Positions 52,305-63,170 of a stretch of DNA of 64,000 nucleotides are shown one piece after another. Below the pieces are notes generated by a model. The model ran no database searches, was not told the origin of the DNA, and was given only the letters and a program-made list of their open reading frames with translations. The translations under genes and the position numbers were made by a program. This stretch comes from Bacteroidales bacterium. Lineage in GTDB: Bacteria; Bacteroidota; Bacteroidia; Bacteroidales; GCA-2748055. The first letter of the stretch is position 1, and each line of letters begins with the position of its first letter. The stretch is taken from contig JAXGMU010000001.1 of NCBI GenBank assembly GCA_040768485.1, positions 63,079 to 127,078 on the forward strand. Direction: 5' to 3'.

Positions 52305-52525
52305 TCAATCCAACTCTAGATCCAGGGCATACCGGATTGCCTCCTCCAGGTCCATCGCCCGGCCTTCCGACTCATATTGCAAAGTCAATTCCTCCCCCAG
52401 TTTTTCACGTGTTCCGACGATGTGTCGTTTTACCAGTTCCTGCCAGAATCCCATTCTCATGTTCTCCAATGACTCCGCCCCGGCTTTCCTGGATCCCTCA
52501 TTTACTGCTAAGCCTCTTTCATCTG
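52305..52525 (-). pseudogene. C-terminal remnant of a TPR/NTPase-type signalling protein
   Basis: Manual translation ...FWQELVKRHIVGTREKLGEELTLQYESEGRAMDLEEAIRYALDLELD*; no credible 5' part. Confidence 0.5.
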
Positions 52526-52539
52526 CTGGGACAGGAAGC

Positions 52540-52675
52540 GTTTGAATTGATTGATGAAAAAAGATCCAGTGGAGACCAGGAGGTACTGCTTGATGTATCT
52601 GGCCTGGAAAGCGGATTATACCTGCTGAAACTGGAAACGGATAAGGTATTCTGCACCAGGATAGTGGTGAAATAA
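52540..52675 (+). pseudogene. Orphan T9SS C-terminal domain remnant
   Basis: ELIDEKRSSGDQEVLLDVSGLESGLYLLKLETDKVFCTRIVVK* is the second half of a CTD. Confidence 0.6.
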
Positions 52676-52724: not shown

Positions 52725-52756
52725 TTTGACTTTCTGATAATATTATTATAGTTTTG
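52725..52756 (+). promoter_or_regulatory. Bacteroidota sigma-A promoter of padR
   Basis: TTTG (52725-52728), 20-nt spacer, TAGTTTTG (52749-52756). Confidence 0.7.
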
Positions 52757-52782
52757 TAATATAAAAGTATAAAGTATATACA

Positions 52783-53154
52783 ATGATGAAGAATAAAATT
52801 CCGGGAGAAATGTTAAAAGGCAGTCTGAAGTCGATCGTACTGAAGCTGCTGGCAGAGAACGATAAAATGTATGGTTATGAAATAACCAGGAAGGTAGAGG
52901 AACTTTCTGAAGGAAAGATCCAGCTTACCTATGGTGCGTTGTATCCTGTTCTGCACAAGCTCGAAAAAGACGGGAACCTGTTGACAGAGTCACAAAACGT
53001 AAATAACAGGACGAGGATCTACTATCGACTTACCCCAAAAGGCAAAAGCGTTGCCAAAGAAAAAATCGAGGAACTGAAAAACTACATGGAAACCCTGAAA
53101 GTACTTCTTCAACCAAACCCCGCCCTGCAGTATGTACCGGTTAAAGCCAGGTGA
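52783..53154 (+). CDS. PadR-family transcriptional regulator
   Basis: LKGSL, MYGYEI, GALYPVLHKLE, RIYYRLTPKG. Confidence 0.93.
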   Translation: MMKNKIPGEMLKGSLKSIVLKLLAENDKMYGYEITRKVEELSEGKIQLTYGALYPVLHKLEKDGNLLTESQNVNNRTRIYYRLTPKGKSVAKEKIEELKNYMETLKVLLQPNPALQYVPVKAR

Positions 53155-54607
53155 CATTGAGCTGATCAGGTTGGATATCAGCCGGCAGCGGGTGACCTAT
53201 TCCCATCTGTTGGATGACCTGGTTGATCATGTTTGCTGCGATGTGGAAGCTGAGATGGATGAAGGGCTCCCGTTCACCCAGGCCTATGAGAATGTGAGGT
53301 CGAGGATTGGATTGAACAGGTTTAAAAAGATCCAGGAAGAGACTTTAATGCTGATTGATAAAAATTATAAATCCATGAAAACATTTATGAAGATCTTTGG
53401 GGTTCTGGCCCCATCGTTAATGGCAGTGGCTGCATTGTTTAAAATACAGCACTGGCCGGGGGGAGGCATCATGATGAGCCTGGGTTTCTTTTTTCTCTGT
53501 TTCTTCTTTCTGCCATCGGCTGTTTATGTGCTGAATGCAGAAAACAAAACAGATAAGAAACATCTGTTCATGAAGTTATCCGGACTGATCTCCTCTGTCA
53601 TTTTCCTGCTGGGCATCCTGTTCAAGCTGATGCACTGGCCAGGAGCAGGCATCGCATTGGTTACGGGCCTGATCATGCTGGGAACACTATTCCTGCCTTC
53701 ACTCATCATTGCGAAAATATCGGATGACAGGGGTGAAGGCAGACGGGCTGTATACCTGCTGGGCCTGTTTGCAGGGCTATTCTATCTTGCAGGTTTTCTT
53801 TTCAAAATCATGCACTGGCCAGGAGCAGGACTGGTCATTCTTATCGGGCTTATATTGTTTGCTATGATCTTTATGCCCCTGTATGTGTCTGCGCATTATA
53901 AAAATGAATCTTATGTCAGCGGTCATTTCATATTTATCATTGTCGGATCCATGATGGCAGTTCTGTTTTTGTCTTTTATGGCATTAACTGTCACAAAGGA
54001 TGTATTATCCGAATTCACTGCGGTAGAAGAACAAATGGATGATGTGCTGATCGATCTGGAAGACAAAAACAATGCATTTGTCCTGGAAACGATCAATACC
54101 TCGGCGAGAGGCGAAGTTGCAGCAGCGGCCCATCAAAAAACCGATGAAATTGAATCCTGGATCAACGATCTGAAGAGAGAACTGGTCATTGCCACTGAAC
54201 CGAACGAAGAAGCCATTTCAGGTGGAGCGATAGATTTCAGCAGGATCATACGAAAAGATGCAAACAATATTCCCACTGATATCCTGATCGTCCAGGGCAA
54301 AGCATCACAACTTGCCGGGAAAATCAGGGAATACAAAGAATATCTCTTATCTGAATCGGCTGATGCAGACCTTGCTTCAAAACTGGATCTGCTGCTTGAT
54401 ATATCCAAAGTCAAAGTCGCCGATGATGAAGAGATCCCCTGGGAAAATGCAACTTTTGAACATCGTACTTTTGTATCGATCCTGAATACCCTGACGACCA
54501 TTCAGATTGAAATAAGGCTGGCAGAGAAGGAGTTTTTGAAAAGTATTTCGGAAAAAAGGGATGTGCGCGGCCAGCAGATCATCGCAGAAGAAACCAGCTT
54601 AAAATAA
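53132..54607 (+). CDS. Membrane protein: PadR-associated N-terminal helical domain + 3 GldL-like TM hairpins + GldM-like TM/D1 domain
   Basis: DDLVDHVCCDVE..MDEG..F..A prefix; FKIQHWPG, FKLMHWPG, FKIMHWPG at about 60-aa period; FMALTVTKDVLSEF; KASQLAGKIREYKEYL...WENATFEH...LTTIQIEIRLAE. Confidence 0.8.
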   Translation: MYRLKPGDIELIRLDISRQRVTYSHLLDDLVDHVCCDVEAEMDEGLPFTQAYENVRSRIGLNRFKKIQEETLMLIDKNYKSMKTFMKIFGVLAPSLMAVAALFKIQHWPGGGIMMSLGFFFLCFFFLPSAVYVLNAENKTDKKHLFMKLSGLISSVIFLLGILFKLMHWPGAGIALVTGLIMLGTLFLPSLIIAKISDDRGEGRRAVYLLGLFAGLFYLAGFLFKIMHWPGAGLVILIGLILFAMIFMPLYVSAHYKNESYVSGHFIFIIVGSMMAVLFLSFMALTVTKDVLSEFTAVEEQMDDVLIDLEDKNNAFVLETINTSARGEVAAAAHQKTDEIESWINDLKRELVIATEPNEEAISGGAIDFSRIIRKDANNIPTDILIVQGKASQLAGKIREYKEYLLSESADADLASKLDLLLDISKVKVADDEEIPWENATFEHRTFVSILNTLTTIQIEIRLAEKEFLKSISEKRDVRGQQIIAEETSLK

Positions 54608-54617
54608 CCAGGAAGCC

Positions 54618-55607
54618 ATGAAAAACAAGATATATATATTCGGAATCGTACTGCTGATCCTGTTCACCATCGGGGCAATTTTTAAAATTAATCATTTTCC
54701 CGGGGCGGGAATCGTGATCACTGTTTCCCTGGTCCTCTTTTCACTGGTCTTTTGTCCGGTGGCACTCGCAAGCACCTACCGGGCAGAGGGAAAACATGCT
54801 TTTATTTACATGATCGGAGGCATCACCATCGCCATCACCTTTATCGGGGCCCTTTTCAAAATCATGCACTGGCCCGGGGCCGGCATCCTGCTGACGATTG
54901 GCATCGTTATACCCTTTATTCTGTTCCTGCCTGCTTACCTGATCTACCAGGGCAAAAAGGGGACCAGGAACATCAGGAACTTAATATTGGTACTGTTCCT
55001 GCTTGTCTATATCTCTGCCATGGATGCCTTAATGGCCCTGAATGTCAGTAAAGCCGTAATCGATGATGCAATACTTGTGAATGATCACTATAATTTGCTG
55101 ACCGCCTATTACCAGGGAAGTACGGAGGATCATCTGTCTGATCTTGACTCCGCGGAACTGACATCGGGCACGTTGCTTGCAGAGAGGACCGATCATCTGG
55201 TATCGGAAATCAACCAGCTGAAGGAAGCGCTTGTATTAGAAGTCTCAAAAGACAATGATGAAGCAGTCGGCAAGGAATCAGGAATTGACATTCGCAGGGT
55301 GACGGGGAAAGACAACAGGAACGTATCTTCCCATGTGATGATTGGCGAGAACAGGGCCCTGGATTTGAAACGAAGCATAAAACAATACAAGGATTTTCTG
55401 AATGAAATAACAGAAAACCAGCAGGTGGCTTTCATCGACAAATACCTTGATACGGATGATTTTGAATGGGAAGGAGAGGTGTATTCCTGGGAAGAGATTC
55501 ATTTTGAGGGGGCTATGCTTGTCTGGGCAATCAACCATCTGAACTCGCTTGAGTTCCGTGTGAGAATGGTAGAAGCTGCAATTGCGGAGGAGATGGCGCA
55601 TTCCTGA
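54618..55607 (+). CDS. Membrane protein: 2 GldL-like TM hairpins + GldM-like TM/D1 domain
   Basis: GAIFKINHFPG, GALFKIMHWPG; LMALNVSKAVID; RALDLKRSIKQYKDFL...WEEIHFEG...LNSLEFRVRMVE. Confidence 0.8.
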   Translation: MKNKIYIFGIVLLILFTIGAIFKINHFPGAGIVITVSLVLFSLVFCPVALASTYRAEGKHAFIYMIGGITIAITFIGALFKIMHWPGAGILLTIGIVIPFILFLPAYLIYQGKKGTRNIRNLILVLFLLVYISAMDALMALNVSKAVIDDAILVNDHYNLLTAYYQGSTEDHLSDLDSAELTSGTLLAERTDHLVSEINQLKEALVLEVSKDNDEAVGKESGIDIRRVTGKDNRNVSSHVMIGENRALDLKRSIKQYKDFLNEITENQQVAFIDKYLDTDDFEWEGEVYSWEEIHFEGAMLVWAINHLNSLEFRVRMVEAAIAEEMAHS

Positions 55608-61986: not shown

Positions 61987-62177
61987 CCTGAATTGATTCT
62001 TCTGTTTCAATAAAAATCTGAGCATTATTTTAGTATGGATTTGACAGTACTTCGCTCATGGAATATCATATGACCAGCGAAGGGTTCAGGCAGATCCGGA
62101 GTACCGCTCTGTGAAAAATGAAATTTATCTCTTAAGTTTATGTGATCGTATTTCTGCTTTTATTTGAAGTCGGACAT

Positions 62178-63170
62178 ATGGTAATACAAAACGAGGATAA
62201 ATTCATCAAAGGTGTTGAGGGTCTGATCCATCCCATGAAGGTCAGCAATCTGCTTTTCTTCCAGAATCTCAAAGGATTGCTTCCTCCGCGCCTGTTGAGG
62301 AGGTTGTTGTACAGCGCATCAAAAAACACCCCTTATATCGGATTCGTGATTGAACCCTACAGCCTGTTCCTGTTCTTCAAGCTCAGGGATCTCGAATATG
62401 CAAAATCGCTGCTGCCGGACCGGTATGAGCTGGCAAAGACGAAATTGTTCATCGATGATGAGCCGGAATACTACATGGGTATCGGGAATCTGGGTACACG
62501 GGCAAGTACCTTCTGGGGCACCAGGCAGGAGGTTTACCTCATTGCAACCGACAAAAGAACCGGACTGTTATCGTTCATTTTCATAGATATATTGAGCAAT
62601 ACAATCATTGCCCTGCCTTCAAAGGGTATTGCTGATCCGAATTGTGAGAAGGCATTCTTCACAACAAGTTCAAAGGGAGAAGTCTTTCTGGAAATTCAGG
62701 AAGCAAGGACCAACAGGAAGTTTTCATTGACCGGCAGCATCAAACGGGGAAAGCTGCGCAGTCTGGATCAGAGGCTCTGGCTCATGGGGAATACCTCCAT
62801 CGGTCACAGCAGGAAACTTGCAGAAGGTGAGGATCATCCTTTCGCCGTAATATTTGATCCGGCTGAAGTGGAGGAAGCCCTGGATGTCCCCCTGGAAGAT
62901 ATACGCATCACTGAAAACACACTTTTCCCGGGACTGGCGGATCCCGAGATCAGCAGGGTGGTCTGTTTTCCCTTCGCCCAGCACTATATTGCCGATAGTC
63001 CGGGTTGCTACACTTCGGTAAAGGACCGTGATGAATTGATCGGCAAGTATAATGAACTGGCGAACATTGAAAACCTCAGGACATTCTCCGCCAGGACCAT
63101 CGTAAAACAACTCTCTGCAGGAATTGTTGTTCTGATACTGATTACGGTACTCCTGATTTTACTTTTGTAG
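62178..63170 (+). CDS. Hypothetical protein with C-terminal membrane anchor
   Basis: Long ORF with normal codon pattern; C-terminal hydrophobic tail; no recognised motif. Confidence 0.65.
   Translation: MVIQNEDKFIKGVEGLIHPMKVSNLLFFQNLKGLLPPRLLRRLLYSASKNTPYIGFVIEPYSLFLFFKLRDLEYAKSLLPDRYELAKTKLFIDDEPEYYMGIGNLGTRASTFWGTRQEVYLIATDKRTGLLSFIFIDILSNTIIALPSKGIADPNCEKAFFTTSSKGEVFLEIQEARTNRKFSLTGSIKRGKLRSLDQRLWLMGNTSIGHSRKLAEGEDHPFAVIFDPAEVEEALDVPLEDIRITENTLFPGLADPEISRVVCFPFAQHYIADSPGCYTSVKDRDELIGKYNELANIENLRTFSARTIVKQLSAGIVVLILITVLLILLL

Follow-up and report, generated by a model that had tools for sequence, protein, structure and literature searches.

The window analysed here, 64,000 nucleotides from a Bacteroidales bacterium (contig JAXGMU010000001.1 of assembly GCA_040768485.1), contains a padR operon whose other two genes, A and B, each encode a fusion of parts of GldL and GldM, the proteins of the membrane motor of the T9SS (type IX secretion system) and of gliding. 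Together, A and B probably make up a receptor of the inner membrane that has the shape of the motor, as a closed bundle, and that signals to PadR. The first-pass annotation, made from the letters of the window, had placed genes of 491 and 329 amino acids (aa) in this operon, and its positions and lengths proved right.

Three stretches of A (E-value 3e-16) and two of B (1e-13) match the Pfam family GldL_N (PF22827) above its cut-off, and each protein matches GldM_1st (PF12081) once (E-values of 3e-14 for A and 4e-13 for B). These matches agree with the homology proposed in the first-pass annotation and with its parts list of three plus two hairpins and one GldM part in each protein. The NCBIfam models score A and B at 40.1 and 36.9 for GldL (TIGR03513, equivalog cut-off 68.3) and at 60.6 and 59.8 for GldM (TIGR03517, equivalog cut-off 180). 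All eight PDB sequence matches of A and all eight of B were GldM/PorM or GldL/PorL chains. By hydropathy, the two proteins have 12 membrane helices, of which A contributes 7 and B 5. The loop motif FKxxH[WF]PG starts at residues 103, 164 and 224 of A (53438, 53621 and 53801 in the window) and at residues 22 and 80 of B (54681 and 54855). These are the positions annotated earlier, but the motif had been given as FKxxHWPG in all five hairpins, and the first one of B reads HFPG.

An AlphaFold model of A (40-row alignment) reached a mean pLDDT (predicted local distance difference test) of 86 and a pTM (predicted template modelling score) of 0.61. Its residues 263-476, membrane helix included, match the GldM chain 7sau_B over 204 residues with a Z-score of 22.4 and a root mean square deviation of 2.4 Å; the best unrelated structure had a Z-score of 10.3. 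The top 50 rows of this structure search contained neither a GldL chain nor a match for the N-terminal domain of A, a result that is uninformative for parts so short.

The accessible part of a GldLM structure report (10.1101/2020.05.11.089193) describes the motor as a five-unit ring around two helices, in which GldL E49 and Y13 and GldM R9 and Y17 are important in the membrane core and matter for motor function. GldL K27 and H30 lie at the periplasmic face, and the loop lysine and histidine pack against GldM (same source and extent). Hairpin residues were located by counting from the loop lysine. The equivalents of E49 (helix 2, F. johnsoniae numbering) and of Y13 (helix 1) were each found in 0 of 795 fused hairpins from the survey described below, versus 13 of 13 GldL proteins. 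An acidic residue lies within three places of the glutamate position in just 13 of the 795, and the position itself is occupied by L122, L183 and F243 in A and by F41 and P99 in B. R9 and Y17, both present in 13/13 GldM proteins, are not conserved in the fusions: tyrosine is outside the six commonest residues of the Y17 column in the A, B and lone N-domain groups, and R9 is sporadic in a gap-sensitive column. Aligned to a PDB GldM/PorM chain, A has F268 and A276 at these two positions. The loop lysine and histidine are present in all five hairpins of A and B; their conservation across the survey is partly built into the anchoring pattern.

Other parts of the motor are missing as well. The GldL cytoplasmic cage motif occurs in 12 of 13 GldL proteins and in 0 of 296 fusions, and both A and B stop after GldM domain 1, without D2-D4. 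Rotor and stator are tethered, as had been claimed, since a linker of ~12-14 residues joins the last hairpin to the GldM helix in each protein; linkers this short, tying the axle helix to the ring, would prevent free rotation. A normal gldK-gldL-gldM-gldN run is located on contig C6 of the host genome, which is 95% complete. Because the key glutamate is absent from the fused hairpins and the host keeps this normal gldKLMN operon, the A/B pair is not the cell's motor. The earlier proposal of a non-motor role thus stands, and so does the reported absence of GldM D2-D4, the GldL tail and gldK/gldN from the operon.

The complex of A (residues 76-478) with B was predicted without alignments and alongside three controls, using a score mark that is reached by 51 of 78 solved pairs and by 2 of 108 mismatched pairs. 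The 1:1 model scored 0.86 and the best control 0.01, in line with the proposed heterodimer, but because solved GldLM structures exist this pass may reflect memory of them, and it shows likeness rather than binding. Contacts agreed between runs to 83% or more, and the partner pLDDT did not fall below 78. The modelled interface involves the first helix (87-106), the sixth (233-256) and nearly the whole GldM helix (259-285) of A, with only 3 residues from the middle hairpin, and the first, fourth and GldM helices of B. A ring that surrounds two central helices and closes where the chains join, at both junctions, would give such a contact pattern.

In order to survey related loci, we annotated them with local profiles; two of the underlying searches kept the best 80 of 588 and the best 80 of 584 matches, and as the query alignment was rich in three-hairpin proteins, class sizes are not frequencies. 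The loci come mostly from uncultured Bacteroidales and other Bacteroidota. Among 143 distinct complete three-hairpin genes that encode the N-terminal domain of A (N-domain genes), 7 had too little downstream DNA and 136 were scored. A two-hairpin gene directly followed in 129 of the 136 cases (120 whole, 9 cut at the contig end); one of the remaining genes was followed by a broken two-hairpin gene and 6 stood alone. The A proteins of 25 sampled pairs had a median identity of 34%. Six 3+2 pairs (L071, L073, L100, L278, L279 and L285) lack domain 1 in both chains, and since they keep both the hairpins and the last helix after this loss, the 12-helix bundle appears to be the conserved core. Tandem 2+2 or 3+3 pairs were not seen among the surveyed loci. 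Divergence of A and B is correlated (Spearman 0.83), as expected for neighbouring genes, and is not evidence for interaction. Of 301 genomes drawn evenly from the order, 29 have the pair and 1 more has a pair cut by a contig end, while a lone two-hairpin-plus-GldM gene is found in 6 and a lone three-hairpin gene in 1.

The survey also recovered variants of the architecture. Seven proteins (P0141, P0156, P0159, P0206, P0207, P0211 and P0224) have three hairpins and a GldM part but lack the N-terminal domain. The start may have been misplaced in some, which would then be A proteins, and others may form a separate class. Hairpin-repeat membrane proteins of 200-230 aa without a GldM domain, with PadR or with none, are encoded at L335:3826-4485, L342:3947-4639, L288:3929-4540 and L289:1489-2097. 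A four-hairpin protein without a GldM domain also exists (P0243).

The N-terminal domain of A, which the first-pass annotation did not mention, consists of ~80 soluble residues ahead of the first hairpin and has four helices in the model. In 40 aligned rows, D32, H33, C35, C36 and E39 are invariant. Directly upstream, a padR gene is present for 125 of 127 N-domain genes with three hairpins and for 57 of 58 with two. Behind the third padR gene of the host genome, an unrelated membrane protein carries the domain as well. No Pfam match was obtained in 10 examples of the domain; the NCBIfam model NF038403 matched four of the ten under its cut-off (E-values 0.0002-0.002), and just one of these four is a hairpin fusion; the copy in A is not among them. 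An ESM Atlas search with the domain gave a best score of 0.84 in unnamed clusters, which we take as a lead only. Small helical HAAS domains on membrane proteins have been proposed to relay signals to an adjacent PadR, replacing two-component systems (PMC11237479, from the accessible text).

A 21-bp palindrome, likewise absent from the first-pass annotation, is common upstream of these padR genes, with scores above 12 in 162 of 173 upstream regions versus 1.4% of shuffles, the matrix having been built from the same 173 regions. The copy in front of the padR gene studied here ranks fifth among 13 sites that score above 9 in the 4.3-Mb host genome, whose three padR operons are preceded by four of the five best sites. 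Autorepression of the operon by PadR would be the simplest reading of the palindrome. The pattern TAnnTTTG, which we take to be the Bacteroidota -7 promoter element, is found in 149 of the 173 regions; a scan for sigma-70 promoters, the wrong promoter type, stayed at chance level.

The second padR operon of the host (L012:5846-7401, contig C3) holds a lone gene with the N-terminal domain, two hairpins and a degenerate GldM part, along with two strong palindrome copies. At the third (L013:3791-5895, contig C42), a TPR gene and padR are followed by the gene for an N-domain membrane protein without GldL hairpins, and the palindrome copy precedes the TPR gene. The third-ranked copy is found just before a 333-aa gene at L344:2154-3179 (C1:192653), presumably for a quinolinate synthase; this copy may be no more than AT-rich promoter sequence that matches by chance. 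An outer-membrane efflux gene lies behind B on the same strand at 19 of 84 loci (for example L064:7483-8892), and adaptor, MacB-type and TetR genes are nearby at a similar number of loci. The efflux genes, absent here, hint at envelope stress in that subset of loci.

The hairpin-GldM module is not confined to PadR partners. Relatives encode proteins of 715-780 aa in which two or three hairpins lead into the GldM helix and domain 1, and a further membrane helix, a region predicted as coiled coil and a SpoIIE phosphatase come next. A profile search of a 50%-identity library gave 1841 matches at E 0.001, canonical GldM possibly included; from the top 150 matches we picked 20 proteins that were long or unusual, of which 9 carry SpoIIE and 1 carries HisKA-HATPase. 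A search for longer relatives of B returned none among 5108 candidates, which was a miss, since genome and profile searches found the long SpoIIE forms. Frames of 720-790 aa, considered as hairpins fused to full-length GldM, were rejected in that role because they end in SpoIIE. A histidine kinase is fused to a two-hairpin module at L378:5757-8258 and in protein P0138, and at L380 the module and a SpoIIE protein are encoded by separate adjacent genes. With a phosphatase, a kinase or a PadR partner found behind it, the GldLM module would most simply be a reusable sensory input, which strengthens the case for a sensor. The first-pass annotation had suggested a sensor or a channel; the fusions favour the former, and the latter finds no support, no acidic residue being kept in the helices.

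Tandem 3+2 pairs of SpoIIE genes occur in four genomes (L204:6230-10759, L209:5964-10503 and the frame-split L210 and L381), one three-hairpin SpoIIE gene lies at a contig end (L211), and lone two-hairpin SpoIIE genes were found in 12 loci. Hairpins of the three-hairpin SpoIIE forms score best against SpoIIE-family hairpins 1, 1 and 2 (44, 68 and 73 bits versus at most 41, 56 and 48), in a comparison of 2-4 sequences from one genus in which kinship inflates the scores; the extra hairpin is thus closest to hairpin 1 of that family. A tree of the GldM part places these forms among the SpoIIE forms and apart from A (support 87-88, unstarred); this is a quick tree of 83 sampled rows with a long-branch warning, and it does not order events. 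Based on the hairpin scores and the tree placement, the 3+2 arrangement likely, though not provably, arose a second time and independently in the phosphatase family. Other members of the L204/L209 genus hold just the two-hairpin SpoIIE gene at that site, whose flanking genes presumably encode a 2-oxoacid oxidoreductase and a glutamate racemase.

If A and B are a receptor, they would assemble into a locked twelve-helix bundle with the two periplasmic domains on top. Inside the ring, the two central helices would be displaced slightly by an envelope cue, which could be strain on the membrane or a ligand or partner that binds at these domains. The displacement would reposition the N-terminal domain of A and let it capture PadR or let PadR go, which would set the activity of the operon's own promoter.

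Several observations weigh against such a receptor. All 60 of the N-domain two-hairpin PadR partners with room downstream lack a hairpin neighbour, and one such lone gene sits in the host genome itself (contig C3). Twelve SpoIIE two-hairpin genes are without a three-hairpin neighbour and 6 three-hairpin genes are alone, so that, to judge from gene content, a 5:2 set is not required in the wider family. Hairpin numbers in homologous operons had been expected to sum to five; this holds for the three-hairpin genes with their two-hairpin partners (129/136) and fails as a family-wide rule. The N-terminal domain of A itself matches no HAAS-type profile, and the aligned domains have no conserved proline after glycine that would correspond to the GxP kink of a three-helix HAAS domain. 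The palindrome in front of this operon is degenerate, its score of 12.7 being below the 10th percentile (14.6). Pairs without domain 1 weaken the idea of that domain as the sensing part. PadR targets can be plain effectors, as the accessible part of PMC6624303 indicates.

The effector alternative takes A and B as a PadR-repressed membrane complex (a passive channel, a membrane stabiliser or an efflux accessory) that is induced by envelope stress, with PadR itself sensing a small molecule. It would fit with Listeria, where the operons that PadR repressors control are mainly their own and encode membrane proteins (PMC6624303, within the same accessible part), and with the efflux genes behind B in 19 of 84 loci, which have adaptor and MacB-type genes nearby. 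That efflux link is confined to a subset of loci that excludes the present one, however, the helices are apolar, with an acidic residue near the glutamate position in just 13 of 795 hairpins, and on phosphatases and kinases the module can only be an input or an anchor. We regard an effector role as unlikely. Similarly unlikely in our judgement is a mixing of the fusions with the native motor, in which 4:2 homodimers of two-hairpin proteins would capture one free GldL, the 3+2 pair being self-contained, and would monitor or damp assembly of the T9SS motor. Lone two-hairpin genes are common (60/60 of the N-domain examples) and one hairpin short of five, and all five hairpins of A and B retain the loop lysine and histidine, which pack against GldM. 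GldL is present in 76 of 80 fusion-bearing genomes (five entries left out for size), but also in 282 of 301 background genomes, which makes the co-occurrence uninformative. Moreover, none of the 13 genome-wide palindrome sites lies on the gld contig, the cage motif is found in none of the 296 fusions versus 12 of 13 GldL proteins, and the A/B pair requires no additional subunit.

Hairpin number might also be only loosely constrained, with other oligomers (homodimers, 4:2, 6:2) being formed and 3+2 a frozen outcome of gene duplication. The 6 lone three-hairpin genes and the four-hairpin protein P0243 would agree with this, and related loci are not independent samples. Retention of 3+2 at 34% median identity and after loss of domain 1, its likely appearance in a second lineage, and the lack of tandem 2+2 or 3+3 pairs in the surveyed loci speak against it, and we hold it to be very improbable. 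Least credible of all is an ion-driven device that rocks rather than rotates and uses other residues. An ion motor is the ancestor, and the GldM-type helix of B contains an aspartate, D136 (one sequence), but the equivalents of E49, Y13, R9 and Y17 are lost, the axle helices are joined to the ring, and a shaft is lacking.

In its hairpin sequence and loop, in the fold of the GldM helix and domain 1, and in its parts list of five hairpins and two GldM parts, the A/B pair resembles the GldL5GldM2/PorL5PorM2 motor (PDB 6ys8, 7sat, 7sau, 7sax and 7saz). Unlike this motor, it has two chains instead of seven, its ring and axle are covalently joined, it is coupled to PadR, and it lacks E49, Y13, R9, Y17, the cage motif, the tail, D2-D4, gldK and gldN. 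As in HAAS-PadR pairs (PMC11237479) and permease-prefix-domain proteins (NF038403), a stand-alone PadR adjoins a membrane protein with a small helical domain at its N-terminus, for which a relay to PadR is proposed; the accessible text of PMC11237479 does not name a GldL/GldM-type membrane part among such proteins. The domain of A has neither a HAAS-type profile match nor a GxP kink motif. ZorAB has a sensing role and is of the MotAB type, ion-driven and made of separate chains. Like A/B, ZorAB of Zorya defence is a 5:2 membrane motor scaffold outside motility and secretion (accessible parts of PMC11890865 and PMC11946911); A/B is by contrast of the GldLM type, fused and without ion-coupling residues. 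The related fusions, in which domain 1 lies between two membrane helices ahead of a catalytic domain, are comparable to membrane SpoIIE/PP2C phosphatases and histidine kinases whose periplasmic sensors have four helices, except that the input of the fusions includes the GldL hairpin ring. The word 'Gld' is absent from the text of a PP2C survey (PMC12088040), 'fused', 'fusion' and 'paralog' are absent from a multi-species GldLM structure paper (10.1101/2022.01.28.478170), and the accessible part of a review of 5:2 motors (PMC9389320) contains no such fusions. As the first-pass annotation had supposed, we found no description of GldL-GldM fusions in the literature, subscription papers and supplements being outside the scope of the search. 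The A/B system joins two known kinds of system, the GldLM scaffold and PadR-coupled membrane signalling.

Features of the padR-A-B operon, with positions in the 64,000-nucleotide window
Feature	Positions	Strand	Description
padR	52783-53154	+	123-aa PadR-family winged-helix repressor; PF03551, E-value 1.3e-19; 23-base overlap with gene A
Gene A	53132-54607	+	491 aa; fuses an N-terminal helical domain with 3 GldL hairpins, then the GldM helix and domain 1
Gene B	54618-55607	+	329 aa: 2 GldL hairpins, GldM helix (~122-140), GldM domain 1; without N-terminal domain
A, N-terminal helical domain (~residues 1-82)	53132-53377	+	predicted cytoplasmic; likely the PadR-contacting part
A, GldL-type hairpins (~residues 85-131, 145-192, 206-252)	53384-53887	+	Pfam, hydropathy
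A, GldM-type membrane helix (~264-286) and periplasmic domain 1 (290-473)	53921-54550	+	Pfam, PDB alignment, structure match
Candidate Bacteroidota -7 promoter element, TAnnTTTG pattern	52749-52756	+	read from sequence
Degenerate copy of conserved 21-bp palindrome, likely PadR operator	52759-52779	both strands/unstranded	matrix score 12.7

Just upstream of the padR promoter, a short frame (52337-52675) ends in a remnant of a T9SS C-terminal sorting domain (PF18962, E-value 0.0002, under cut-off) and looks like a gene relic. On the minus strand, a 342-aa gene at 62142-63170 has no Pfam match; its neighbour is presumably an FAD-dependent dehydrogenase.

A broader and rather doubtful proposal is a receptor superfamily in Bacteroidota in which the axle has been welded to the ring and the proton path removed, with at least three outputs (PadR, SpoIIE phosphatase and histidine kinase). 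Its ancestral two-hairpin form would be a 4:2 dimer that captures one native GldL and reads assembly of the secretion motor, and duplication would have added the fifth hairpin at least twice, giving the self-contained 3+2 pair. The lone two-hairpin forms pose the question of ring closure as 4:2 versus recruitment of native GldL. If the receptor reading is true, a rotary motor core became a signal receptor through rotor-stator fusion, and in environmental Bacteroidota a single module feeds signalling outputs of three kinds. The T9SS field would then have a two-chain GldLM copy made by nature that does not rotate. Tethered constructs modelled on it could address the need for rotation, and the 5:2 geometry could be examined separately from torque.

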